This document shows positions 27,195 through 57,570 of a stretch of 64,000 nt of DNA, piece by piece. Position 1 is the stretch's first letter, and every line of letters begins with the position of its first letter. This DNA comes from a virus. Taxonomy: Duplodnaviria > Heunggongvirae > Uroviricota > Caudoviricetes. The stretch spans positions 25,850-89,849 of the IMG/VR virus record IMGVR_UViG_3300028146_000009, one strand, 5' to 3'. A model generated the notes under the pieces. That model worked only from the letters and a program-made list of their open reading frames with translations. It did no database searches and was not told the DNA's origin. The position numbers and the translations under genes were made by a program.

Positions 27195-27491
27195 TTACTT
27201 TTTTATCTTCTTGATTTTGCGCGGTTTTTTTAAATATTGTATTACATTCAAATATCGATAAGGAATGGTATTTAAATGAATATAAGTCAAACAATATTCT
27301 TCAAATTTACTATCTTCATTTATACATACCCAATTTTTACCATCATTACTACCAATAATTTGAACTTGAGGTCGAAACTTCTTCATTTTAATAAAGTTCC
27401 TACAAAATAAATCCCAAACATGCACATTAAAACTGTTGGAGTCATTGTTAAAATTGCCATAACGTTCCAAATCATTTAAATCCTCCAACAT
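27195..27491 (-). CDS. hypothetical protein with basic C-terminal tail
   Basis: 98 aa, ending KKPRKIKKIKK. Confidence 0.35.
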   Translation of the reverse strand: MLEDLNDLERYGNFNNDSNSFNVHVWDLFCRNFIKMKKFRPQVQIIGSNDGKNWVCINEDSKFEEYCLTYIHLNTIPYRYLNVIQYLKKPRKIKKIKK

Positions 27492-27900
27492 AATTACGAA
27501 ATACTAATTCATCATTAAATACTTTATATTCTTTTATCGAAAACCCTTTTTTATAATGCTCCAAATAAAATTTAATAGCTTTTAAATGATCATAATCCTT
27601 ATAGAAATCATCTACAATTAAACCGATGCATTTATTATCTTCAATCCCATTATCATCACAAAGAAGCATTCCGATTATTCGAACTTTTACCTCGCTCAAA
27701 GGAATTAAGGGCTCAAAACTAATGACAAATACATCTAGATCATCCCCGTCAGCTTGAATTGGAAGATCTTTGATAAATCCATAATTTTGAGGGCAAGGGA
27801 TCGGAAGAACCCTATCTAGCATTAAAACACCGGTTTCTTTATTTTTTTCAGATTTAAGGTAAGATCCTTTTCCAATTTCTATAACCGCAGTAAATTCCAT
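27472..27900 (-). CDS. ppa: family I inorganic pyrophosphatase
   Basis: VIEIGKGSYLKSEKNKETGVLMLDRVL and DGDDLDVFV match PPase active-site signatures (EIPxGSxxKYExDKExG...DGDPLDVLV). Confidence 0.7.
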   Translation of the reverse strand: MEFTAVIEIGKGSYLKSEKNKETGVLMLDRVLPIPCPQNYGFIKDLPIQADGDDLDVFVISFEPLIPLSEVKVRIIGMLLCDDNGIEDNKCIGLIVDDFYKDYDHLKAIKFYLEHYKKGFSIKEYKVFNDELVFRNYVGGFK

Positions 27901-27986
27901 TAATCCTCCAAATCGTTCTGAAAGAAACTGTCATAATAAAAACTGACTGCTAAAAGATAAGTTCCAATAAAAAGTGCGAATTCCAT
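27900..27986 (-). CDS. 28-aa hydrophobic peptide (below ORF-track cut-off)
   Basis: Hand-translated MEFALFIGTYLLAVSFYYDSFFQNDLED. GGAG RBS. Its stop overlaps the ppa ATG. Confidence 0.2.
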   Translation of the reverse strand: MEFALFIGTYLLAVSFYYDSFFQNDLED

Positions 27987-28318
27987 TATAATTTATCTCC
28001 AATTTTTTTCATTTTGATTAATGCTGAATTTGCTTCACTTTGTACATCATCAACATGCATTGGTCCAAATGTTATTTTATTTAAAGATTCAATGGCAATA
28101 TCTAAACATTTAAATAAATCATCTAATTCATGCCGCGCTCTTAGAATAAATTCACCATCGTCGCAATGCCATTGATGAACACCTCTAGAAGTACCCCAAT
28201 GTTTACTTAAACTAGCTCTTGGCGGTACAATATCTGTATTAAATGGATAATTCGATGTGCCCTTCCAATCTTTTTTAGGTGCTGATTTTTCTAAGGATTC
28301 TCTAAGTTTTTTAAACAT
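27986..28318 (-). CDS. hypothetical protein
   Basis: 110 aa, coupled to its neighbours. Confidence 0.4.
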   Translation of the reverse strand: MFKKLRESLEKSAPKKDWKGTSNYPFNTDIVPPRASLSKHWGTSRGVHQWHCDDGEFILRARHELDDLFKCLDIAIESLNKITFGPMHVDDVQSEANSALIKMKKIGDKL

Positions 28319-28677
28319 TATAATTTCCTCAAAATTACTTCGTAAATTGGTTTTTTCAATTTTAACATATTATCTTTCATATTACTAGAACCTTTAGATT
28401 TTCCATCCCAAATTAAAAGTAAGGCATCTGAATAATCTGCCATTTCTTTATTTCTTCTGGGACCAGCTGCTTTTCCGTGTTCATTCCAATCTGCGGGGAA
28501 ATACTTTACTGATAGGGCCATATGAGAAGCATAATAATCTCCTTCAGTATCAACACCTTCAGCTCCACCACAAATGACTTCAGTAATAAGTTTATTAATT
28601 CCAAATAATACTAATGATGAATGTATTAGTTCAAAAGTTGGATATAAGTCTCTAGATCCAGCAATGATTATTTTCAT
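28318..28677 (-). CDS. DprA/SLOG-like Rossmann-fold protein (DUF2493-like)
   Basis: IIAGSRD...VICGGAEGVDTEGDYYA...LLLIWDGKSKGSS resembles the DprA/Smf and SLOG nucleotide-binding core. Confidence 0.4.
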   Translation of the reverse strand: MKIIIAGSRDLYPTFELIHSSLVLFGINKLITEVICGGAEGVDTEGDYYASHMALSVKYFPADWNEHGKAAGPRRNKEMADYSDALLLIWDGKSKGSSNMKDNMLKLKKPIYEVILRKL

Positions 28678-28738
28678 AAAACTCCTTGTATATTCAGAAA
28701 TTATAAGTTACTATCAAACAATTGTAAAGGAGAATTTA

Positions 28739-28936
28739 ATGAAATCTGGATGGAAAATAGAATTTCTAGATAATATTGAAAGAATAGATAAATGGAGGGA
28801 GACTGCTTATTGGGCCATTGGCATTATTGAAAACTATGAATCAGCGTTAGAAACAATTTCTTATATGGGTCCAGATGAAGCGGAAACTGAAGCAAAAATT
28901 GTAGCAAAAGAAGCTTTGGAGAAAAATAATGCCTGA
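28739..28936 (+). CDS. hypothetical protein (start at internal ATG with AAGGAG RBS)
   Basis: First gene after the strand switch. Overlaps the Pnk start. Confidence 0.35.
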   Translation: MKSGWKIEFLDNIERIDKWRETAYWAIGIIENYESALETISYMGPDEAETEAKIVAKEALEKNNA

Positions 28937-29798
28937 ACTAATTTTAATGGTCGGCCCCGCAGGTTCTGGAAAATCCACATTAAGCCGCACGTTTGGATCT
29001 AAATACGTAAGAATTAATCAAGATGAACTTGGAAAAGAAGGCCATAAAGAACAATTTAATCTTTCATTGCATGCTGGACATAATATAATTATTGATCGAA
29101 TGTCATTTTCCAAAGAACAACGAGCCCGTTATCTCGAGCCCGCAAAAAAAGCGGGCTATAAGTGCTACATTAAAGTGCTACATGAAAACTTCGATACATG
29201 CTTGGAAAGAATGAAGAAAAGAGAATTTCACCCTACTATAAAAGATGAAAAAACTGCTAAAAAGGTTTTAAACTTCTTTTTTTCAAAATATGAACGTCCA
29301 ACTCCAGATGAAGCTGATGAAATTGAATTTCGATATCCTGAAGGCGAAAAACCACTTGCTGTCATTTGCGATTTGGATGGAACTTTGTGTGATATTGATC
29401 ATAGACTTCATTTTATTCATCCGCCCGAAGGAGTTAAAAAAGATTGGAAAAGTTTTTCTGAATCTTTAAGAACCGACGGTATAAATCAATGGTGTAGAGA
29501 AATTTTATGGAATTTTGAAGATAAAGGAAAAAATATTGTATTATGTTCAGGAAGGTCTGATAATTATAAAGATTTAACTATTGATTGGTTAAATAATAAT
29601 CATATTTATTATACTAATCTTTTCATGCGACACCGAGATGATTATAGGAAAGATGACATTGTAAAAGAAGTGATTTTAGATTTTGAAATTCTAACTCGTT
29701 ATAGGCCGTATTTTTTTATAGATGATAGAAAATCAGTGGTGGACATGTGGCGTAAAAGAGGATATACTTGTCTTCAATGTGCAGATGGGAACTTTTAA
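28929..29798 (+). CDS. pseT: polynucleotide 5'-kinase/3'-phosphatase (T4 PseT-like)
   Basis: P-loop VGPAGSGKST. HAD-phosphatase DxDGT (AVICDLDGTLCD). C-terminal DDIVKEV...IDDRKSVVDMWRKRGYTCLQCADGNF is closely similar to the T4 Pnk C-terminus. Confidence 0.85.
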   Translation: MPELILMVGPAGSGKSTLSRTFGSKYVRINQDELGKEGHKEQFNLSLHAGHNIIIDRMSFSKEQRARYLEPAKKAGYKCYIKVLHENFDTCLERMKKREFHPTIKDEKTAKKVLNFFFSKYERPTPDEADEIEFRYPEGEKPLAVICDLDGTLCDIDHRLHFIHPPEGVKKDWKSFSESLRTDGINQWCREILWNFEDKGKNIVLCSGRSDNYKDLTIDWLNNNHIYYTNLFMRHRDDYRKDDIVKEVILDFEILTRYRPYFFIDDRKSVVDMWRKRGYTCLQCADGNF

Positions 29799-30590
29799 AT
29801 GATTAAAATTCAAACATTAGATTTAATTGAAAATAAAGAACATATTGTAAAATCTACAATTTTTCCCGATGGAACTTCACAAGTTTGGAAATTACCAGAA
29901 GAAATTATTAATTCATTAAATTTAAAAATAACTTGGAATTTCGAAGCTGAAAGAGAATTAATTGATCTTAGAAGTTTACGAGCATTAACTTTAAAAAATT
30001 CTCATGTTCATTGCCATATTCCATACTTACCTTATGCCCGGCAAGATAAAAATGTAACAAATAATACAAGCTTTAATTTAGATATTTTTGCTGAAATTTT
30101 AAATCTATGTCAATTTAATCTTATAACCGCAGTTGATGTTCATAATAAAGAACAAACTTATAAACTTATTAAAAATTTTCAAAATATCCCAGTAACTGAA
30201 CAAATTAATAAGTTAGCTGATGAATACGATGTTGTGTTATTTCCAGATAAAGGAGCAACTGAAAGATATAATGCTAAGATCACAAATTCAAAACAGTTTA
30301 CTTGTGTTAAAGAAAGAGACCAAACAACTGGTCAAATTTTAAATCATAAATGCCCAGAATTAGCATATCCAATGGTTAATTCAGTTTTAATTGTGGATGA
30401 TATTTGTGATGGCGGCGCAACTTTTATAAGTGTTGCTAAAATGTTAAAAGCCCAAAAAGATTTTAAAATAGGATTATTTGTAACTCATGGAATTTTTAGC
30501 AAAGGAAAACAAGTTTTACTTGACGCCGGCATTCAAAACATATACTGTACTAATAGTCTGCTAAAAAATGAAGATGGATTTAAAGTATGA
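29799..30590 (+). CDS. ribose-phosphate pyrophosphokinase-fold protein (Prs homolog; candidate ADP-ribose pyrophosphokinase Adps)
   Basis: FPDGTSQVW, VVLFPDKGATERY and PRPP-binding VLIVDDICDGGATF match Prs motifs. 263 aa, shorter than canonical Prs. Confidence 0.7.
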   Translation: MIKIQTLDLIENKEHIVKSTIFPDGTSQVWKLPEEIINSLNLKITWNFEAERELIDLRSLRALTLKNSHVHCHIPYLPYARQDKNVTNNTSFNLDIFAEILNLCQFNLITAVDVHNKEQTYKLIKNFQNIPVTEQINKLADEYDVVLFPDKGATERYNAKITNSKQFTCVKERDQTTGQILNHKCPELAYPMVNSVLIVDDICDGGATFISVAKMLKAQKDFKIGLFVTHGIFSKGKQVLLDAGIQNIYCTNSLLKNEDGFKV

Positions 30591-31321
30591 AAACACAAAA
30601 AGACCTTATTGATTTTTTTAATGGAGTAGATACAAAAAACTCATCAATTACTCCTGAACAAAAGGCATTCCTCCAATCTATAGGTAGATATCATCCATCT
30701 ATTACTCAACAAGAAATGAATGAAATTACTAATGCGTTTTCTGGGAATTTAGCAGGTCATGATGTTAGAATTGGATATTATGGAGGAATGGCAAGTATGG
30801 CTAATTCTAAGCAATTACCTAGGGTTCAAGCCGCAACTCCTTTAAAATCAGGTATTAAATACGTAAAAATGTCACTTTTTGATGCACCTAATGGATCAGT
30901 TCTAGTGCATGCTTGTAATGCCCAAGGTGTTTGGGGATCTGGAATTGCTAAAGAATTTAAATCAGTATTTCCAAAAGCTTTTGATGAATACAATAATTAT
31001 TGTAATATGAATTTACCATATCATTCAGTTGGCACAACTTTAATTACAAAGCCTGAAAATTCATACCGAGTTGGATGTTTAATCACTTCTTCTGATTTCG
31101 GTGCCCGATTAAATGCAGAACAATTAATTCTAACGCATACTAAACACGCACTAGATAAATTAGGTGAAATGTGTAATGATAATACAATTTACTCAAATAA
31201 ATTTAATAGTGGATTTTTTAAAGTTCCTTGGGAAAAAACTGAGAAACTTATTAATGATTTTGTTAAAAAATATAACCGAGTATGGGTCATTTGTGATCCA
31301 GACTTACAGGAGAAAAAATAA
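30587..31321 (+). CDS. macro-domain-like protein (ADP-ribose binding/processing)
   Basis: VLVHACNAQGVWGSGIAKEF and GTTLIT resemble the macro motifs VNAANxxLxxGGGVxxAI and GxAxIT. Confidence 0.4.
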   Translation: MKTQKDLIDFFNGVDTKNSSITPEQKAFLQSIGRYHPSITQQEMNEITNAFSGNLAGHDVRIGYYGGMASMANSKQLPRVQAATPLKSGIKYVKMSLFDAPNGSVLVHACNAQGVWGSGIAKEFKSVFPKAFDEYNNYCNMNLPYHSVGTTLITKPENSYRVGCLITSSDFGARLNAEQLILTHTKHALDKLGEMCNDNTIYSNKFNSGFFKVPWEKTEKLINDFVKKYNRVWVICDPDLQEKK

Positions 31322-32683
31322 ATGCTTTTATTTGCAATTTTAGGATTAGCCGGACTATTAACAATAACAATGTTATCCACATTGTTTCTAAGAAAAGTGG
31401 TTCCAACAAATGAAGTACATATTGTCCAATCAGCTAAGAAAACGACTTCTTACGGAAAAGATACTGGAAATGGAAATACTTATTATGAATGGCCAATTTG
31501 GTTGCCATTTTTAGGTGTTAGAAAATCTCAAATGCCAACAAGCGTTTTTAATTTAAATATTAAAGATTACGAAGCTTATGATAAAGGTAGATTGCCATTT
31601 GTTGTAGATGTGATGGCATTTTTTAGAATCGATGATTCAAATGTTGCAGCTTCAAGAGTTGCTAGTTTTCAAGAACTTGATGCACAACTTCAAGCAATTG
31701 TTAAAGGATCTATTAGAACAATTTTAGCAAATAATGATATTGAAACTATTTTGGCCAGCCGCGCAGTGTTTGGCGAACAGTTTACCGAGGAAGTTAAAGA
31801 ACAACTTAAACACTGGGGGGTTTGTGCAGTAAAAAATATTGAATTAATGGATATTCGAGATCATCAAACGAGCCAAGTTATTCATAACATTATGGAAAAA
31901 AAGAAATCTCATATTGAAATGGAATCTCGTACAGAGGTTGCCAAGAATATGAAATTAGCACAAACTGCTGAAATTGAGGCTAAACGAGAAGTAGATCTTA
32001 GCCAGCAAGAAGCCCAGCAAACTGTAGGTTTAAGAATGGTTGATACTCAAAGAGAAGTTGAACTTTCAAAACAAGCATCATTACAAGCTGTTAAAGAACA
32101 GGAACGTCTTACTAAAGAAAAAGAAATGAATGTTGTAAGAGTTGAGCATGTAAAAACTGCTGAAATCAATCGGGACATGGCGGTAGTCCAAGCAGATCAA
32201 TCTAAACAAACAACAATTTTGGCCGCCGAGGGAGAAAAACAAAAAACAGTTTTGACCGCTGAAGGTCAACTTGAATCACAAAAACGAAACGCTGAAGGTA
32301 TTACATTAACCGGTCAAGCTAAAGCAAATGCAGAAAAAGCAATGCAATTAGCTCCTGTAGAAGCTCAAGTTGTTTTGGCGAAAGAAATTGGTCAAAATGA
32401 ATCATACCAAAAGTATTTGATTACAATTAAACAAGTTGAAGCTCAGCAAGCAATTGGTGTGGAACAAGCTAAAGCGCTTGATAAAGCAGAAATTAAAGTA
32501 ATTGCAAATACTGGATCTAATATTAGTTCTGGATTAAATAATGTAATGGATCTATTTTCAGCTAAAGGTGGCCAACAAATTGGTGCAGCACTTGAATCTT
32601 TAGCAAATACTGATACTGGTAAAGCATTGATTGAAAAAGTTGTAACACCTAAAAAACCAGCCAATGGTAGTGCTAATTTGTGA
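31322..32683 (+). CDS. SPFH/band-7 (flotillin/HflK-like) membrane protein
   Basis: N-terminal TM. SPFH core NEVHIVQS...VMAFFRIDD...IRTILANNDIETILASR. Long C-terminal E/K/Q coiled coil. Confidence 0.65.
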   Translation: MLLFAILGLAGLLTITMLSTLFLRKVVPTNEVHIVQSAKKTTSYGKDTGNGNTYYEWPIWLPFLGVRKSQMPTSVFNLNIKDYEAYDKGRLPFVVDVMAFFRIDDSNVAASRVASFQELDAQLQAIVKGSIRTILANNDIETILASRAVFGEQFTEEVKEQLKHWGVCAVKNIELMDIRDHQTSQVIHNIMEKKKSHIEMESRTEVAKNMKLAQTAEIEAKREVDLSQQEAQQTVGLRMVDTQREVELSKQASLQAVKEQERLTKEKEMNVVRVEHVKTAEINRDMAVVQADQSKQTTILAAEGEKQKTVLTAEGQLESQKRNAEGITLTGQAKANAEKAMQLAPVEAQVVLAKEIGQNESYQKYLITIKQVEAQQAIGVEQAKALDKAEIKVIANTGSNISSGLNNVMDLFSAKGGQQIGAALESLANTDTGKALIEKVVTPKKPANGSANL

Positions 32684-32724
32684 GAAATAAACAAATTTTA
32701 GAAATGTCTACAAATGGAGAAAAA

Positions 32725-34212
32725 ATGAATTATAATCCAATGCTACTTTGTGATTTTTATAAAATTAGTCACCGGGCAATGTATCCAGAAGGAACTGAAA
32801 CCGTCTATTCAACTTGGACACCCAGGGCTTCAAGAATGAAAGGTGTAAATGAAGTTGTAAACTTTGGTCTTCAAAAATTTGTTAAAGAATATTTGATTTC
32901 TTATTTTAATAAAAACTTTTTTAATAAAAGTAAGAAATATCTTGTAGATGATTATAAGAGAATTATTAAAGGAACATTGGGAGTTGAAAATCCTGATACT
33001 CAACATATTGAAGATCTTCGAGATTTAGGATATTTACCACTTTCAATTAAAGCTCTTCCAGAAGGAACTAAAGTTCCGCTTCGAACTCCAGTGATGACAA
33101 TTCAAAATACCAACCCTAAATTCTTCTGGCTTACTAATTTCATTGAATCTTTAGCGAGTTCTGAACTTTGGCAAGCATCAACTTCTGCAACAATTGCCCA
33201 TGAATATCGTAAAATTCTTGATAAATATGCAATGGAAACTGTAGGAAATACAGATTTCGTTCAATTCCAAGGCCACGATTTTTCATTTCGCGGAATGAGC
33301 AGTCTTGAATCTGCAGTAAATTCAGGCCTGGGTCATCTTCTTTCTTTTGTAGGAACTGACACAATTCCAGCAATTCAAGGGGCCGAGCACTTTTATAATG
33401 CAAATGTTGAAAAAGAACTAGTGGGGACTTCAATTCCAGCCACTGAACATTCAATCCAATGCACTTATCAAGATGATATGAAATATCTAGAAACCATGCT
33501 TACAAAAGTTCATCCTAATGGTTTTGTTTCCATTGTAAGTGATGGTTATGACTTTTGGAATGTTATTGGAAATGTTTTACCAGCTTTTAAAGATAAGATA
33601 ATGGCGCGCAGTGGTGGCCCGATCGGGGACCGAGTAGTAATTCGTCCTGACTCGGGAGATCCTGTTAAAATCGTTTGTGGTGACCCTAGCGCCTCGCCAG
33701 ACAGTTTAGAACATAAAGGTGCGGTGGAGGCATTATATGATATTTTCGGTGGATCAATTACAACTAATGGTTATAAGTTGCTTGATTCCCATATTGGTCT
33801 TATCTATGGCGATGCTATTACGCTGGAACGATGCAAAGAGATTTGCGGACGACTTAAGTCTAAGGGTTTTGCGAGCATTAACTGTGTTTATGGGATTGGT
33901 TCTTTTACTTATCAGTACAATACTCGTGATACATTTGGTTACGCATTAAAATCCACACTTGCAGTAATTAATGGTGATGAAAAGATGATTTTTAAGGACC
34001 CAAAAACTGATGATGGAACTAAAAAGAGCCAAAAAGGACGAGTTGCAGTTTTTAAAAATGAAAATAATGTTATTGAATGGGAAGATAATTTATGGCTAAA
34101 TGGACCTAATTCAAGATTAACTGGTAACCTTCTACAAGAAGTTTTTCGAGATGGAAAATTATTGGTGGATGAGAATTTTAGCACGATTAGAGATAGGTTG
34201 AAGAATAGTTAA
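32725..34212 (+). CDS. nadV: nicotinamide phosphoribosyltransferase family (NadV / Namat-like)
   Basis: LCDFYKISH, GHDFSFRGMSS, VSDGYD and IRPDSGDP match NAMPT signatures. Start set at the ATG after the GGAG RBS. Confidence 0.85.
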   Translation: MNYNPMLLCDFYKISHRAMYPEGTETVYSTWTPRASRMKGVNEVVNFGLQKFVKEYLISYFNKNFFNKSKKYLVDDYKRIIKGTLGVENPDTQHIEDLRDLGYLPLSIKALPEGTKVPLRTPVMTIQNTNPKFFWLTNFIESLASSELWQASTSATIAHEYRKILDKYAMETVGNTDFVQFQGHDFSFRGMSSLESAVNSGLGHLLSFVGTDTIPAIQGAEHFYNANVEKELVGTSIPATEHSIQCTYQDDMKYLETMLTKVHPNGFVSIVSDGYDFWNVIGNVLPAFKDKIMARSGGPIGDRVVIRPDSGDPVKIVCGDPSASPDSLEHKGAVEALYDIFGGSITTNGYKLLDSHIGLIYGDAITLERCKEICGRLKSKGFASINCVYGIGSFTYQYNTRDTFGYALKSTLAVINGDEKMIFKDPKTDDGTKKSQKGRVAVFKNENNVIEWEDNLWLNGPNSRLTGNLLQEVFRDGKLLVDENFSTIRDRLKNS

Positions 34213-36176: not shown

Positions 36177-36370
36177 AAAATTTAAAAGATCTAACCGAAG
36201 ATCAATTAATGGAAATGCATACAGAAGCTTTATTTGAGATTAGTTACCATACCGCAGAAATTAAACACCTGGAAACTCATATTAATGAAGCAGTTGAAAC
36301 TATGCAGGCTGTTGATGAAGAAATGGATTCTAGACAAAATGGGCCAAAATTAAAGCCAGTTAATAATTAA
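36173..36370 (+). CDS. hypothetical protein
   Basis: 65 aa, ATGA-coupled, last gene of the island. Confidence 0.3.
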   Translation: MKNLKDLTEDQLMEMHTEALFEISYHTAEIKHLETHINEAVETMQAVDEEMDSRQNGPKLKPVNN

Positions 36371-37155
36371 ACTTTATATCTCCAATAATAACCAGCGGCT
36401 TGTAATCTTTCACCCCTGATAACCCGCCTAACCTGCTTTGGTTGAAATCCTTTATTAGTTAAGTCTTCGCAATTATCAAAAGTTACTATTTCTCCGGTTT
36501 CAACATTAATACCCTCAATAGGCTTTAAAAAATCATGTTTAAAAGCTCCTATAAGGTCTAGAGCTTGTTTTTTATAGAAATCTGGGTCATCTACTGTTTT
36601 ATAGAACCAGCACTGTTTCTGGCCCGTTTTAGCAGTTTTATTCAAAGCGGAATAAATAGAAGATACTGAAAAACCATCACGGCGGGCATCATGAACTCTA
36701 CTATAAAACTTAACCGATCCATCATAGATTGATACTGCAACTATTGGAACTGCCTGGGATTCACCAGCTTTTTGATTAGATTCTTCTCTTTGTTTTCGTT
36801 TTTCAGGATCAGCCCATTCTTTTAACATTGTTTTTTTATTATTTTCTGCTAATCTTTCCCATCTAGTGGGGTCAATTGTATTATAACCATTTGGTTCCAT
36901 AGTATTAAATAGGTCTATAAAATACATTTCCAATTCTTCTAAATCAGATTTAATAAAAACAGTGCATATTTCTTCAATTTTAAAACTAGACTCACCATAT
37001 TTTTTAATGGCTTTATGGAAATAACAATTAGTATCTTTTTTAGCTAGATACTTGTGATTACTCCAACGAATCTCTGCGGTGTTCTTGGTAGAACCCACAT
37101 ACATTTTTTTATTAGTTTTATTTGTTATTAAATAAATACAACCTTCACGTTTCAT
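36367..37155 (-). mobile_element. freestanding GIY-YIG homing endonuclease gene
   Basis: GCIYLITNKTNKKMYVGST (GIY..YVG). Downstream R, H, YGESSF, ELE and PNGYN catalytic motifs. Sits just downstream of the capsid-gene terminator. Confidence 0.75.
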
Positions 37156-37240: not shown

Positions 37241-38497
37241 TTAATTACTGTTAACAATATTGAACAAAACAGTGTTCCGACCAGGCGCACTTGTAAACAA
37301 GGCTTGGTCTGACCAAAGACGCAATTCGTAGCCCGCAGCATCCGACAAATCTCTAAAGAACTCATCACCTTGTGACGGTCGTTTAAAGGTAACATCAGAG
37401 CTACCAACACGGCACCATTCATCCATAGCAAGTACGAATGCATAACCTTGTTTAATATAAATAGATGCTTCGATTTCAATAGCACCGGTTAAAGTATTAA
37501 ACACAAGTTTTTCAGAACCGTTTTCAGCAACTGATACTTTATAGCTACCATCGTATTTACGAAGAGCAGCTTGATCAGACATCATATTTGTCCAACCGCG
37601 AGGATTACAGTAACAAACGGCTTTACCGTCCATACCTTTTTCCATTGCACGTTCAGTGGCTTGAGTAATTTTTGTAAAGCTCAAAGCACCTGATTGAGCA
37701 TCGTATTGGTTACCACGGAAAAGGTTGAATTGAGCGGTATCGATATTAAACAATAAACCTGAGGTCATTGTTAAAATTTTGTGGATACCAGGGAATTCAT
37801 TACCAAAAGCACCTTTATGCCAGATAACATCTGTAGCAACAACACCTGGAATAGCACTTACAGTCGTAATGGTTTGCGCCAAAAAGTCAACTGAAGCTAC
37901 CGTAGAAGTTCCACGGCTAACTGTGCCTGCGGCGTTACGGATTTCAATTGGCATTCCTTCAGCACCGGCCCAAATACCAGGAGCCCATTCGGCAGTGGTA
38001 ATCGTTAAAAGAGTTCCAGCAGCGGCAGAAACCGTTGCATAACCCATTTGACCGTAAAGAAGTTCGATTTCGAGTTTCTTAGTAACTGAACGAAGCATAT
38101 TTGAAACGAGGTATTTTGTACCGTCTTCAAAAGCTTTGGCAGTTCCTTGAGCCGCGCGACTTGCAGCGGTATAACCAAGAACTGAACGGAGAACCAAGGG
38201 GTTACCACGAACTTCAGCATCTTTAGTTTGACCGGCAATCGCAGGATTCAAATTAAAAGCATCATCAGTGCTGTTCGCAAAGGTAACGCCATGTTCCATT
38301 CCAAGAATAACAGGCTGGTGATATAAATTACCAGGTTGTTTATCTTTGGGAAGGAAAGGGATTTTATTGAGCAATTTAACTCCATCAGGAATTAATTGTT
38401 CTAATTTATTTGCATAAGTTTCTTTAAAAAAGCCATTCAGATTCCCAACTTCATTTCCTGGGGTTCCGAACGTATTTGCACTTTGACCTAAAGCCAT
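37241..38497 (-). CDS. putative major capsid protein
   Basis: 418 aa. Followed by a strong terminator and preceded by decoration-like and scaffold-like genes. The call rests on position and size only. Confidence 0.5.
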   Translation of the reverse strand: MALGQSANTFGTPGNEVGNLNGFFKETYANKLEQLIPDGVKLLNKIPFLPKDKQPGNLYHQPVILGMEHGVTFANSTDDAFNLNPAIAGQTKDAEVRGNPLVLRSVLGYTAASRAAQGTAKAFEDGTKYLVSNMLRSVTKKLEIELLYGQMGYATVSAAAGTLLTITTAEWAPGIWAGAEGMPIEIRNAAGTVSRGTSTVASVDFLAQTITTVSAIPGVVATDVIWHKGAFGNEFPGIHKILTMTSGLLFNIDTAQFNLFRGNQYDAQSGALSFTKITQATERAMEKGMDGKAVCYCNPRGWTNMMSDQAALRKYDGSYKVSVAENGSEKLVFNTLTGAIEIEASIYIKQGYAFVLAMDEWCRVGSSDVTFKRPSQGDEFFRDLSDAAGYELRLWSDQALFTSAPGRNTVLFNIVNSN

Positions 38498-56329: not shown

Positions 56330-56725
56330 ATGAAATTAACTAGAAATGAAATTGGAGCTAATGGATGTTTTGGAATTTTAACTGATAATTCTGGAAATCA
56401 AATAGCAGTAACTACTGAGCATTCTTATTTACAACCCGATGGATCTTATGTGCCGAAAACACCGGCTGGAACTTATACTTGCATAAAAGGAAAACATACC
56501 TTAGAACATCACCCGGTCCCATTTGATGCTTTTGAAATTACAAACGTGCCCAATCATACCCAAATTTTACTACATATTGGAAACTATCCGCAGGTTGATA
56601 GTAATGGGTGTGTGCTTTTAGGGGAAAAAAGAGTTGGAGATATGATAACTAATTCGAAAATAATATTTCTTAATTTTATGAATGCGATGTCTACTACTGA
56701 TTCATTTCAATTAATTATTAGCTAA
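56330..56725 (+). CDS. putative L,D-transpeptidase-fold (YkuD-like) protein
   Basis: LHIGNYPQVDSNGCVLLG resembles the YkuD catalytic His...(S/T)xGC(V/I)xL motif. A lone plus-strand gene. Confidence 0.3.
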   Translation: MKLTRNEIGANGCFGILTDNSGNQIAVTTEHSYLQPDGSYVPKTPAGTYTCIKGKHTLEHHPVPFDAFEITNVPNHTQILLHIGNYPQVDSNGCVLLGEKRVGDMITNSKIIFLNFMNAMSTTDSFQLIIS

Positions 56726-56914
56726 ATTATTATCCATACTTGAAATTAAAACATTATTATTTTCCCAAATTTTAATAAATGGACATTGATTTTCTTTTAA
56801 TTCAATATTAAAAAATGCACCATTTGTGGGAGATAAACATTTAGGGGTCCCCGATAAATCATTTACAAAAACTAATTGAGATTCACCTGTATCATTAAAG
56901 AAATATACTTTCAT
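56711..56914 (-). CDS. hypothetical protein
   Basis: 67 aa. Confidence 0.3.
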   Translation of the reverse strand: MKVYFFNDTGESQLVFVNDLSGTPKCLSPTNGAFFNIELKENQCPFIKIWENNNVLISSMDNNLANN

Positions 56915-57570
56915 TTCTGATACTCCACAATAGTTATACCATTAGTCGGACAATAAATCTCATCACAAATAGCGCAATTATAGAATGACTTTCCAAATAA
57001 ATGTTTCTGCTGACCGCCGGGATGATGTATGTGCCCGAAAAAATGCAAATCCAAATCTTTTAATTCCTTAATTCTTTCTAAAAGTCTAGGACACCCTAAA
57101 AATCCAGGTCTAAGATCACCATTGGCATAAGTAGTTTGATCTAAAATTCCATATGGAGGTCCGTGTGTTACAAGAATATTTATATCATCTGGAATTGCAT
57201 TCCAATGTTTTATAATTTCAAATGAATTCCTATTCCAGGCCCAATCATTAAATTCGGGCTGAACCGGCGATCCCCAAATTTTAATCCCATCAATTTCATA
57301 ACCTGAGTCACAAAGATATTCTATGCCATTATCAATACACATTTGTTTCATAAGATTTGGATTTTCCTCTGAAAGCAAATCATGATTCCCAGCAATTAGT
57401 ATAATTTTTTTAAATTGATCTTTATATTTTTTTAATTCATTAAGTTCTTTAGCAATTTCTTGAATTGATCCTCTATTTGTTAAATCTCCAGAATGTATTA
57501 AAATATCTCCATATGGTAACTTAATTTTATTTAATTGACAATGTGTATCTGAAATTGCAATTATTTTCAT
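56911..57570 (-). CDS. calcineurin-like metallophosphoesterase
   Basis: Motifs DTH, GDLTNRG, GNHD, VTHGPP and GHIHH. Confidence 0.7.
   Translation of the reverse strand: MKIIAISDTHCQLNKIKLPYGDILIHSGDLTNRGSIQEIAKELNELKKYKDQFKKIILIAGNHDLLSEENPNLMKQMCIDNGIEYLCDSGYEIDGIKIWGSPVQPEFNDWAWNRNSFEIIKHWNAIPDDINILVTHGPPYGILDQTTYANGDLRPGFLGCPRLLERIKELKDLDLHFFGHIHHPGGQQKHLFGKSFYNCAICDEIYCPTNGITIVEYQK

Follow-up and report, generated by a model that had tools for sequence, protein, structure and literature searches.

The SLOG Gene and Its Surroundings

The stretch of viral DNA analysed here (64,000 nucleotides, hereafter the window) carries a leftward gene for a stand-alone SLOG protein whose GGAEGVD core occupies residues 37 to 43 (Table 1). 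The σ70-like promoter match upstream of the gene is the best in a 3-kb scan around it and is a putative promoter, such matches being frequent in AT-rich DNA. According to public gene callers, independent contigs of this phage carry the same ORF; among GenBank phages, no near-identical DNA was found for the window. The protein matches both PF10686 and phrog_289, and its relatives comprise 567 homologues (full length, identity up to 65%), 27,997 cluster representatives (from roughly 28,000 50%-identity clusters) retrieved by a family profile search at E ≤ 1e-3, and 720 phage records matched by tblastn with the SLOG protein, KVP40 and phiEco32 included. Thus, the ORF is confirmed to be a real gene rather than a chance ORF. 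An earlier note on this DNA had pointed to an ORF of this length with a GGAEGVD motif, and the ORF call, the ribosome binding site, the promoter match, and the homologues all bear it out.

Table 1. Features at and around the SLOG gene (window coordinates)
Feature	Position	Strand	Remark
Family-I inorganic pyrophosphatase, short (142 aa)	27472..27900	-	85 nt downstream of orf110
orf110, ORFan	27986..28318	-	start codon overlaps the SLOG stop codon by one base (TAATG)
Stand-alone SLOG protein, 119 aa (PF10686 YspA/DUF2493; phrog_289)	28318..28677	-
Shine-Dalgarno AAGGAG	28682..28687	-	4 nt before the SLOG ATG at 28677; read from sequence
σ70-like promoter match TTTACA-17-TATAAT, 11/12 positions	28728-28700	-	23 nt upstream of the SLOG start codon
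65-aa ORF	28739-28936	+	between the SLOG gene and PNKP
T4-type polynucleotide kinase/3'-phosphatase (PNKP)	28929..29798	+	divergent neighbour, 252 bp from the SLOG gene
NARP1-AP NAD+ reconstitution operon	29799..34212	+	context, not a conserved partner of SLOG
Adps (PRPS-like)	29799-30590	+	start 1.1 kb from the SLOG gene
Macro/Adpp phosphatase	30587-31321	+	1.9 kb from the SLOG gene
SPFH/Band-7 gene	31322-32683	+	inserted in the NARP1-AP operon
Namat (Nampt-like)	32680-34212	+	4.0 kb from the SLOG gene

On the leftward side, the overlap of start and stop codons makes it probable that orf110 and the SLOG gene are translationally coupled, and the pyrophosphatase gene probably belongs to the same transcription unit. 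orf110 was considered as a conserved partner and rejected: it matches no family, is restricted to this phage, and does not occur at 49 homologous SLOG loci.

On the rightward side lies an NAD+ reconstitution operon. Enzymes that phages encode along with NARP1 turn 2'/3'cADPR and ADPR-1P into ADPR for the rebuilding of NAD+, and the window operon also holds an Adpp-type Macro gene. Its NAD+ pair is NARP1 (Adps/Namat). The Namat shares 60% identity with a protein of Bacillus phage SPbetaL1 and only 31% with a Nampt that is paired with NMNAT; an NMNAT gene, as a NARP2 pathway would require, was not found in the window and about 15 kb of flanking sequence. The SLOG gene had been described as sitting directly beside the NAD+ and macro genes. 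These genes are indeed nearby, but they are on the opposite strand and divergent from the SLOG gene, with PNKP and the 65-aa ORF in between. Neither a TIR nor a SIR2 gene is present among the window genes examined, and the SLOG protein has no fusion or operon link to an effector (SIR2, Macro) and a TIR signal producer of the kind seen with ThsA-type sensors.

A Member of the YspA/DUF2493 Family

The SLOG protein covers the entire 66-position model of PF10686 (YAcAr/YspA, formerly DUF2493) with a score of 29.4 bits, a small margin over the cut-off of 28.2; its homologues score 32 to 45 bits. The match to phrog_289 (PHROG 289, annotated as "GTP-binding domain") is full-length with E 9e-23. The protein is a direct member of this family, with the same length and the same four motifs, GxR, GxAxGxD, RN, and GxSxG[ST]. 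Other members are KVP40.0155, phiEco32 gp35, and the C-terminal domain of ICP1 HelB, and BFVD lists a family protein from an uncultured phage that is named after mycobacteriophage D29 gp61. Within PF10686, the window protein falls into a sub-group, mostly from environmental phages, with a conserved C-terminal KPxYE motif, and its closest GenBank phage relative is only about 50% identical. The family also extends to archaeal viruses and to giant eukaryotic viruses. A member of 271 residues, P0226, consists of the SLOG domain in tandem duplication; no extra Pfam domains were found in 10 long members of the close subfamily.

No match to the SLOG protein was obtained in NCBIfam or in PADLOC, whose library holds defence rather than anti-defence proteins. 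A PDB search with the single sequence and with a profile revealed no solved structure of any family member, and the literature searched contained no functional, binding, or activity test of a YspA/DUF2493 protein. The family is already catalogued, and the window gene adds one member. The earlier call of a SLOG/DprA-like protein was correct: the protein is a SLOG of the YspA/DUF2493 family and is DprA-like at the level of sequence.

Fold and Putative Pocket

The predicted fold, a check that the earlier note had proposed, is a three-layer α/β Rossmannoid with a five-stranded sheet. Only SLOG, Rossmann, and glycosyltransferase proteins appear among its listed structural neighbours; the closest are YpsA (the top match) and DprA/ShosA rather than ThsA.

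Bacillus subtilis YpsA (PDB 2NX2) is a cell-division inhibitor of 178 residues, coupled to gpsB in Firmicutes. To our knowledge, YpsA has no Arg in its first loop, and the phage family does (GSR). A GxD/E signature after strand 2 is typical of the YpsA-like clade (PMC6459960); in the window protein it is G41-V42-D43, and G41 and D43 are invariant even in distant members. Like YpsA, the phage protein might modulate host physiology, forming ligand-dependent oligomers that disturb host division or respiration as the phage takes over. When overproduced, YpsA blocks division in a manner that needs the GxD/E motif, a prophage homologue of YpsA, YoqJ, exists (PMC6459960), and the promoter match suggests early expression. 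However, the residues of YpsA that inhibit division are not conserved even in YoqJ (PMC6459960). Viruses of archaea and eukaryotes, to which FtsZ/GpsB biology is not relevant, also carry the family. We regard a role in host takeover as very unlikely.

Four motifs stand out in the protein: G7-S8-R9, G37-G-A-x-G41-x-D43, G72-x-x-R75-N76, and D91-G92-x-S94-x-G96-S97. From KVP40 to mycobacteriophages, G7/R9, G37/G41/D43, G72/R75/N76, and G96 are invariant; these residues sit in the loops that follow strands 1, 2, and 4 and at the N-terminal end of the helix that follows strand 3. The corresponding region of SLOG proteins is the nucleotide-phosphate binding site. Judged from sequence, the invariant residues appear to match the phosphate clamp of DprA. 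In ThsA, equivalent pocket residues (Gly-Ser loop, Arg, Gly) hold the 3'cADPR diphosphate, and so the motifs cannot separate a free nucleotide from a nucleic acid as the ligand.

LOG/PpnN enzymes carry the motif PGGxGTxxE with a catalytic Glu, plus a catalytic Arg. A LOG/PpnN-like N-glycosidase acting on free (d)NMPs, which would reshape nucleotide pools or supply salvage pathways with ribose-5-phosphate and free base, would accord with the Arg in the helix after strand 3 (R75), as in LOG. It would also accord with the frequent placement of SLOG genes beside genes for dCMP deaminase, dUTPase, RNR, or dGTP diphosphohydrolase and with a reported fusion of SLOG to guanylate kinase. Nonetheless, the LOG signature is missing: the window protein has D-G-x-S-x-G-S-x-x-M instead, and the position of the LOG/ThsA Glu, assigned by motif spacing and not by superposition, is Met100 here and Met, Cys, or Thr in all aligned members. 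In addition, no single gene of nucleotide metabolism is consistently paired with SLOG. Such an enzyme is therefore an unlikely identity for the protein.

Proximity to the NAD+ Genes Is Not Conserved

The earlier note had used the position beside NAD+ genes as an argument for function. A reciprocal scan of 80 loci with close Namat homologues, 77 of which also carry Adps, does not uphold it. Of the 80 NARP1 loci, 18 contain Macro, whereas a SLOG gene comes within 8 kb in only 2, at a distance of 7 kb or more each time and never adjacent. From the other side, Namat/Nampt lies within 10 kb in only 5 of 45 non-redundant SLOG loci, a frequency no higher than that of peptide deformylase, dUTPase, RNR, or Acb5. 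An association of SLOG with NARP1 is thus rejected, and the nearness of the SLOG gene to NAD+-rebuilding genes is particular to this phage and does not reflect a conserved partnership. In this respect the gene differs from those for RyDEP and the Macro phosphatase Adpp, which reside inside NARP1 operons and recur with them; the window SLOG gene is outside, divergent, and non-recurrent. The folds of the two proteins, a RyR domain in RyDEP and a Macro domain in Adpp, also differ from SLOG.

Possible Binding or Processing of ADPR-Derived Signals

The idea of an ADPR-type signal as ligand is not new: in 2022, Iyer et al. proposed that viral SLOG domains of the YpsA clade, which they termed experimentally uncharacterised, sense or degrade cADPR-type signals (PMC9503650). 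Applied to the window protein, the pocket would accommodate isomers of cADPR or some other ADPR derivative, and the protein would either sequester the ligand or cleave an N-glycosidic bond, blunting TIR/Thoeris signalling; as with RyDEP, the ADPR might be fed to the neighbouring NARP1-AP pathway. This is possible, but we consider it doubtful.

Multiple observations are consistent with such a ligand. The SLOG domain of ThsA, the 3'cADPR sensor of type I Thoeris, belongs to the same superfamily and contacts 3'cADPR through G289, S290, R371, K388, G399, and E403. Its Gly-Ser loop, Arg, and Gly have counterparts in G7-S8, R75, and G96, and the GxD/E signature of the YpsA clade is present (above). 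Fusions of SLOG to Macro, NADAR, Nudix, and DUF4326 have been published together with genome-level co-occurrence (PMC9503650, PMC7824862). A Macro gene lies two genes from SLOG in phiEco32, and one lies 1.9 kb away in the window; NADAR and DUF4326 each occur once within 2.5 kb of SLOG genes, and four lineages have the anti-CBASS gene Acb5 no more than about 3 kb from SLOG. That a NARP1 operon can harbour an inserted enzyme that degrades a signal is known from RyDEP (PMC13232231). Finally, the pyrophosphatase, which is on the SLOG strand and probably in the same transcript, might pull the Namat reaction.

Against this stand, besides the lack of a conserved link to NARP1, several features of the protein and the family. 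ThsA E403, which contacts the ribose diol of 3'cADPR and sits, by motif spacing, at the position of the LOG catalytic Glu, is replaced by a non-acidic residue family-wide, a position judged by its +4 spacing from the Gly and not by superposition. Occurrence in archaeal and giant eukaryotic viruses argues against a Thoeris-specific role. RyDEP was described (May 2026) as the first known enzyme to cleave 2'/3'cADPR, and a lysate screen of 72 phages, which may or may not include SLOG carriers, found RyDEP activity only.

The analogy with Tad-type sponges that the earlier note had drawn applies at the level of function alone: Tad1, Tad2, Sequestin, and Lockin are likewise small phage proteins, and the SLOG protein could in principle also bind ADPR-derived signals, but the folds are unrelated. 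Its Pfam and PHROG matches include none to Tad1, Tad2, Acb2, Acb4, Sequestin, or Lockin, and no fusion to a known sponge family is seen among the 10 long members of the close subfamily, which counts against a sponge. A structural sponge screen by the Sorek laboratory discarded candidates with HHpred hits to known proteins and, consequently, does not constitute negative evidence.

Recurrent Neighbours and a Proposed DprA-Like Phosphate Clamp

The genes that recur near SLOG more often than NAD+ genes are those for RNA repair, replication, and Dda-type helicases. RNA-repair genes (RlaP, PNKP, RNA ligase) lie within 2.5 kb in 9 of the 45 non-redundant SLOG loci. In some of these the SLOG gene is interleaved with them; the order varies, and the ligases belong to two families (RlaP-PNKP-ligase-SLOG, RlaP-SLOG-PNKP-Rnl1, and RlaP-HNH-SLOG-x-PNKP-ligase). 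The four tightest cases may share ancestry. The reciprocal scan, which started from PNKP, was weak: SLOG genes came within 8 kb at only about 3 of 35 non-redundant PNKP loci. The association is accordingly suggestive only. ICP1 carries SLOG as a fusion with its SF1B helicase HelB (Dda-type), and KVP40.0155 lies between an RlaP homologue and a Dda helicase. Elsewhere, the SLOG gene is located between DnaB and endonuclease VII/primase (a mycobacteriophage), adjoins an ATPase and a 5'-3' exonuclease (phiEco32), or is near RecA, RNR, and PNKP (a Campylobacter phage).

The reading that we tentatively favour, while holding it to be far from certain, is that the SLOG protein is a DprA-like clamp for the phosphate of a nucleic acid or nucleotide, acting in repair or counter-defence. 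R9 (GSR) together with R75-N76 (RN) would grip the phosphate of a nucleotide unit, and D43 of the GxD signature and W64 would contact sugar and base. The target would most likely be a single-stranded nucleic-acid end, such as broken tRNA/RNA or ssDNA. The protein would be a small accessory factor, probably expressed early, that assists or targets the enzymes of nucleic-acid repair and counter-defence, namely PNKP, RNA ligase, RlaP, and Dda-type helicases or, where SLOG is part of a fusion, Macro or NADAR de-ADP-ribosylases. In this phage, it would be made, apparently from its own promoter, along with the ORFan and the pyrophosphatase at the edge of a counter-defence island (PNKP and NARP1-AP).

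DprA is the sole protein in the PDB with sequence-level similarity to the SLOG protein, a sub-threshold match over GSR...SGGAxGVD. Of the 10 long members scanned, 5 have the DprA family PF02481 as their second Pfam match, and precomputed Pfam assignments also list it for several homologues; the window protein itself has no match to PF02481, and homologues reach only 17 to 24 bits against a cut-off of 29.6. In HpDprA, R52 and R143 are required for ssDNA binding, as are R139 and R234 in ShosA, the DprA-like antitoxin of the Shosta defence system (PMC12961424). R9 and R75 are the putative counterparts of these pairs, assigned by motif and not by superposition.

Several points go against a DprA-like clamp. 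Compared with DprA/Smf, the window protein is the core only, with about 120 residues versus more than 200 in the DprA Rossmann domain, and the SAM domain, the C-terminal domain, and the extended dimer surface are absent. Its pI is near neutral (7.8, within a family range of 4.6 to 9.6), and the link to RNA repair is one-sided. The family clade of YpsA has been linked to NAD+/ADPR ligands by Burroughs, Iyer, and Aravind (PMC9503650, PMC7824862), and both the rank of YpsA as top structural match and this curated classification count against a nucleic-acid clamp.

Implications

Position alone does not warrant annotation of this protein as a part of NAD+ reconstitution or as an anti-Thoeris sponge, and the notion of an immune-signal sponge is, for the window protein, a guess. 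In a broader and distinctly unlikely version, stand-alone SLOG proteins of the YspA type would be a very widespread, hitherto unrecognised group of viral enzymes or decoys that bind or cleave ADPR-derived immune signals such as cADPR isomers or related molecules, handing ADPR to NARP1-AP in phages like this one; if true, the destruction of a signal would be coupled to the rebuilding of NAD+ in such phages. Alternatively, stand-alone SLOG proteins may represent a fourth component of phage tRNA-repair modules. SLOG YspA/DUF2493 is among the larger viral protein families without an assigned function, and it includes proteins of the model phages KVP40, phiEco32, and ICP1. Establishing which ligand the pocket accommodates, the end of a nucleic acid or a nucleotide derived from NAD+, would provide a function for thousands of genes, and the family would then represent either a new class of counter-defence proteins or a new accessory to nucleic-acid repair in phages.

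The SLOG gene and its family

The window carries the 119-residue open reading frame described in the earlier note, with GGAEGVD at residues 37 to 43, and it is a genuine gene rather than a chance reading frame. On independent contigs of this phage, which come from ENA and JGI samples and reach 89.9 kb, public gene callers also predict it. The protein scores 29.4 bits (cut-off 28.2) against Pfam PF10686 (YspA, a cpYpsA-related SLOG family, formerly DUF2493) and matches PHROG 289 across its whole length (E 9e-23). The family is very widely distributed among viruses. A word-indexed search returned 567 homologues with identities of at most 65%, a profile made from 55 homologues retrieved 27,997 cluster representatives among 1.84 billion (E≤1e-3), and tblastn matched the gene in 720 GenBank phage records. 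One metagenomic relative (P0226, 271 residues) is a tandem pair of SLOG domains of this family.

Just upstream of the gene lies the top σ70-like promoter match in the surrounding 3 kb. Because AT-rich DNA often yields such matches, it constitutes weak evidence; the consensus match and the gene position only suggest that the gene may be expressed independently, probably early, from its own promoter.

Fold and conserved pocket

The AlphaFold2 model, built from a 55-sequence alignment (pLDDT 97.1, pTM 0.90), contains five βα units. Its structural matches are Bacillus subtilis YpsA (score 13.2); in second place ShosA, the DprA-like antitoxin of Shosta, which binds ssDNA and RecA (12.6); DprA proteins (11.3 to 9.8); LOG-type TM1055 (10.5); the 3'cADPR-bound SLOG domain of ThsA, the type I Thoeris sensor (9.6); and, lower, Moco-carrier and LOG/PpnN proteins. 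The Foldseek ranking agrees. In BFVD, the same fold, labelled DUF2493/YspA, is found in phages, archaeal virus HGTV-1, Marseillevirus, Pandoravirus and Pithovirus, as well as in an uncultured-phage protein named for mycobacteriophage D29 gp61. A search of the PDB by sequence found no member of the family. Since the predicted fold is related to SLOG/DprA proteins by both structure prediction and Foldseek, the SLOG/DprA family call of the earlier note stands. The protein belongs to the family, and has its fold and a conserved pocket.

Many residues are invariant in the alignment of the close subfamily. Across distant members (KVP40.0155, phiEco32 gp35, mycobacteriophage SoilDragon gp67, Campylobacter phage F374_084, and Cellulophaga phi18:3 gp060; 26-47% identity), G7, R9, G37, G41, D43, G72, R75, N76, and G96 are invariant, and A39, W64, A71, M79, D84, G92, and S94 almost so. 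Four conserved motifs all map to the canonical SLOG ligand site: G-S-R follows strand 1, G-x-A-x-G-x-D strand 2, and G-x-S-x-G-S/T strand 4, while A-G-x-x-R-N begins the helix that comes after strand 3. The GxD/E signature of the YpsA clade (PMC6459960) is present as G41-x-D43. DprA supplied the sole, sub-threshold, sequence matches in the PDB, and these align over GSR and GGAxGVD. Binding of ssDNA needs R52 and R143 in HpDprA and R139 and R234 in ShosA (PMC12961424), to which R9 and R75 correspond by motif position. In ThsA, five residues (G289, S290, R371, K388, G399) hold the 3'cADPR diphosphate, and E403 holds the distal ribose (bioRxiv 2022.05.07.491051). The Gly-Ser loop, Arg, and Gly of that site all have counterparts in the SLOG protein. 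Because the conserved motifs fall at the SLOG ligand site and include counterparts of phosphate contacts, the pocket is predicted to be a phosphate-anchored nucleotide site.

The LOG motif PGGxGTxxE contains a catalytic Glu, whose place we take to be the +4 position after Gly. At this position, which corresponds to E403 of ThsA and to the LOG Glu by motif spacing and not by superposition, all aligned family members have Met, Cys or Thr. Thus, on motif spacing, the pocket would lack the acidic residue that serves catalysis in LOG and ribose recognition in ThsA, and would be closer to DprA and YpsA than to LOG or ThsA. A LOG-like NMP glycosidase seems improbable, and YpsA-like modulation of the host very improbable.

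Gene neighborhood in the window

Features of the window and of comparison loci (L-numbers; gaps in bp unless stated)
Feature	Location	Strand	Remark
Inorganic pyrophosphatase, family I	27472-27900	-	short (142 aa); probably in one leftward unit with SLOG gene
ORFan, 110 aa	27986-28318	-	ATG shares a base with SLOG stop codon (TAATG)
SLOG gene	28318-28677	-	119 aa
Ribosome-binding site AAGGAG	4 nt upstream of SLOG ATG	-
σ70-like promoter match	28728-28700	-	TTTACA-17-TATAAT, 11/12 positions
65-aa ORF	between SLOG gene and PNKP	+	divergent from SLOG gene
PNKP, T4-type	28929-29798	+	252 bp from SLOG gene, divergent
Adps (PRPS-like)	29799-30590	+
Macro/Adpp	30587-31321	+
SPFH/Band-7 gene	31322-32683	+	inserted between Adpp and Namat
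Namat (Nampt-like)	32680-34212	+
GIY-YIG homing endonuclease	36367-37155	-	adjoins major capsid gene
Major capsid gene	37241-38497
Portal protein, 1050 aa	50323-53475	-	Hom_end_hint and LAGLIDADG matches
DUF5675 gene	56330-56725	+
Calcineurin-like phosphoesterase	56911-57570	-
RF-1-domain gene	59603-59971	-	ArfB-like peptidyl-tRNA hydrolase
RNA ligase, T4 Rnl1-type	L054:1086-2162		same phage contig, ~9 kb beyond left end of window
Acb5 homologues	L001:7562-7804, L003:7251-7496, L012:12921-13142, L029:10450-10692
RNA-repair cluster	L027		RlaP-PNKP-ligase-SLOG, gap 0
RNA-repair cluster	L033		PNKP-ligase-SLOG, gap 20
RNA-repair cluster	L032		RlaP-SLOG-PNKP...Rnl1, gaps 116 and 214
RNA-repair cluster	L040		RlaP-HNH-SLOG-x-PNKP-ligase
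RNA-repair cluster	L015		PNKP-RlaP-Rnl1, SLOG 2 kb away
RlaP	L001, L031		0.8 kb and 1.4 kb from SLOG
KVP40 genes 0153-0156	L050		RlaP(0153)-0154-SLOG(0155)-Dda(0156)
phiEco32 gp37-gp33	L056:2897-4393		Macro (gp37), ECF sigma factor (gp36), SLOG (gp35), ATPase (gp34), 5'-3' exonuclease (gp33)

The ORFan has no homologue beyond this phage among 5.8 billion proteins. The pyrophosphatase could pull the reactions of Namat and RNA ligase, both of which release PPi; leftward past it lie structural and tail-fibre-like genes.

A search of the window and about 15 kb of flanks turned up no NMNAT gene. The Nampt-like protein is 60% identical to a protein of Bacillus phage SPbetaL1, the source of the reference NARP1 (Osterman et al.), and 53-55% identical to homologues adjoining PRPS-like genes, versus 31% to a Nampt paired with NMNAT-Nudix. 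On both grounds, operon 29799-34212 is assigned to NARP1 (Adps plus Namat, NAD+ reconstitution), and a PRPP-dependent Prs/Nampt salvage pathway was rejected. Through its Macro gene, the operon matches the NARP1-AP pathway reported in January 2026 (bioRxiv 10.64898/2026.01.28.702374), where ADPR-1''-phosphate is turned into ADPR by a Macro phosphatase that resembles Poa1p. An SPFH gene is likewise present in locus L152, after Namat. Given the PNKP in the window and the Rnl1-type ligase on the same contig, the phage is predicted to have tRNA-repair capacity.

Elsewhere in the window, the portal gene probably carries an intein, and the family-B DNA polymerase of the related locus L001 is also intein-bearing. 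Another related locus, L005, has RF-1, DUF5675, and peptide deformylase genes near SLOG.

Recurrent neighbors across loci

The earlier note argued from the NAD+ genes beside SLOG, an argument that the comparative loci do not bear out. In the SLOG-side set (43 IMG/VR, 6 metagenomic, and 5 annotated phage loci, which with the window give 45 non-redundant loci), only 5 (the window, L003, L015, L020, and L046) have Namat/Nampt within 10 kb of SLOG; it is 3-8 kb away in these and adjacent in none. Among 80 IMG/VR loci that contain a close homologue of Namat (L117-L196), Adps adjoins Namat in 77 and a Macro gene is present in 18; SLOG lies within 8 kb in only 2, both at least 7 kb off and both on contigs already within the SLOG-side set. 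A conserved SLOG-NARP1 link is absent. SLOG is therefore not a NARP1 accessory like Macro/Adpp or RyDEP, from which it differs in having no recurrent NARP1 placement, and its adjacency to NARP1 in the window is a lineage-specific arrangement within a region of counter-defence and auxiliary genes.

An unbiased census of 284 ORFs within 2.5 kb either side of SLOG genes, by BLAST clustering and a Pfam scan of each ORF, gives as the families that recur most, counted by locus or ORF, peptide deformylase (6-9), RlaP (5-6), DNA polymerase B, dCMP deaminase, and PD-(D/E)XK nuclease (5 each), RNA ligase, AAA ATPase, and RNase_H_2 (4 each), PNKP (3-4), RNR (3), dUTPase (3 in the Pfam census to 7 by BLAST clustering within 4 kb), and NADAR and DUF4326 (1 each). 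Homologues of the anti-CBASS cGAMP nuclease Acb5 lie about 0.05-3 kb from SLOG in four lineages, directly downstream in L029. In a mycobacteriophage, SLOG is flanked by DnaB and endonuclease VII/primase, and in a Campylobacter phage RecA, RNR, and PNKP are near. In phiEco32, start and stop codons overlap around SLOG, with Macro two genes upstream.

RNA-repair genes (PNKP, two RNA ligase families, RlaP) are present in 12 of the 45 SLOG loci over the flanks retrieved, and within 2.5 kb in 9. In L027, L032, L033, and L040, SLOG is interleaved with operons of RlaP, PNKP, and RNA ligase; these show three gene orders and two ligase families, a variety that argues for more than one association event. 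Several tight cases may share common ancestry, and in the reciprocal scan only about 3 of 35 non-redundant PNKP loci have SLOG within 8 kb. The link to RNA repair is suggestive, not established. Within 8 kb of NARP1 operons, RlaP is found in 10 of 80 loci and PNKP in 5 (e.g. L142, L152, L161, L164); L142 has the order RlaP...PNKP...Adps-Macro-Namat, where RlaP, PNKP, and Adps are spaced about 1 kb apart. Common counter-defence islands seem to house both RNA repair and NAD+ reconstitution.

Function and significance

The earlier note proposed that the protein is a sponge or processor of ADPR-derived immune signals. This rediscovers a published prediction, since Iyer, Burroughs, Anantharaman, and Aravind (Viruses 2022) had already proposed that viral SLOG domains, most of which they assigned to a YpsA-like clade, sense or degrade cADPR-type signals, while calling them experimentally uncharacterised (PMC9503650). 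Their survey reports fusions to Macro, NADAR, and DUF4326, and to HTH, HNH, exonuclease, SF1 helicase, and guanylate kinase domains (PMC9503650); a jumbo-phage paper of the same group makes the same proposal for YAcAr SLOG domains (PMC7824862). RyDEP, a RyR-domain glycosidase inserted in a NARP1 operon, was reported as the first known 2'/3'cADPR-cleaving enzyme as of May 2026, and its activity alone was detected in a lysate screen of 72 phages (PMC13232231). The Sorek-lab structural sponge screen dropped candidates with HHpred matches to known proteins, so its silence on the SLOG family is uninformative. In the literature searched, we found no phage DUF2493/YspA protein that had been tested biochemically or genetically.

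Action on ADPR-type small molecules is in keeping with the clade to which experts assign the family, with its fusions to Macro, NADAR, and Nudix, and with the gene context in this phage; the missing Glu, the absent NARP1 association, and the occurrence of the family in archaeal and eukaryotic viruses make it rather unlikely, and a true anti-Thoeris sponge or glycosidase in particular quite doubtful. The earlier note's functional claim is unproven and draws no support from comparative context. We tentatively entertain, as a reading that may hold, that the protein would act as a DprA-like phosphate clamp on a single-stranded nucleic-acid end or nucleotide unit. This needs fewer assumptions, given helicase fusion and adjacency (in ICP1, SLOG is fused to the SF1B helicase HelB; bioRxiv 671271), the occurrence in replication modules and among RNA-repair genes, and motifs of the DprA type. 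Macro and NADAR fusions, we infer, could then place SLOG as a nucleic-acid-binding module on enzymes that remove ADP-ribose from nucleic acids.

The window protein is a new member of a SLOG family already known but experimentally uncharacterised. The family is large and occurs in tractable model phages, of which phiEco32 is one, and this makes it worthwhile, taken as a whole, as a target for experiments.
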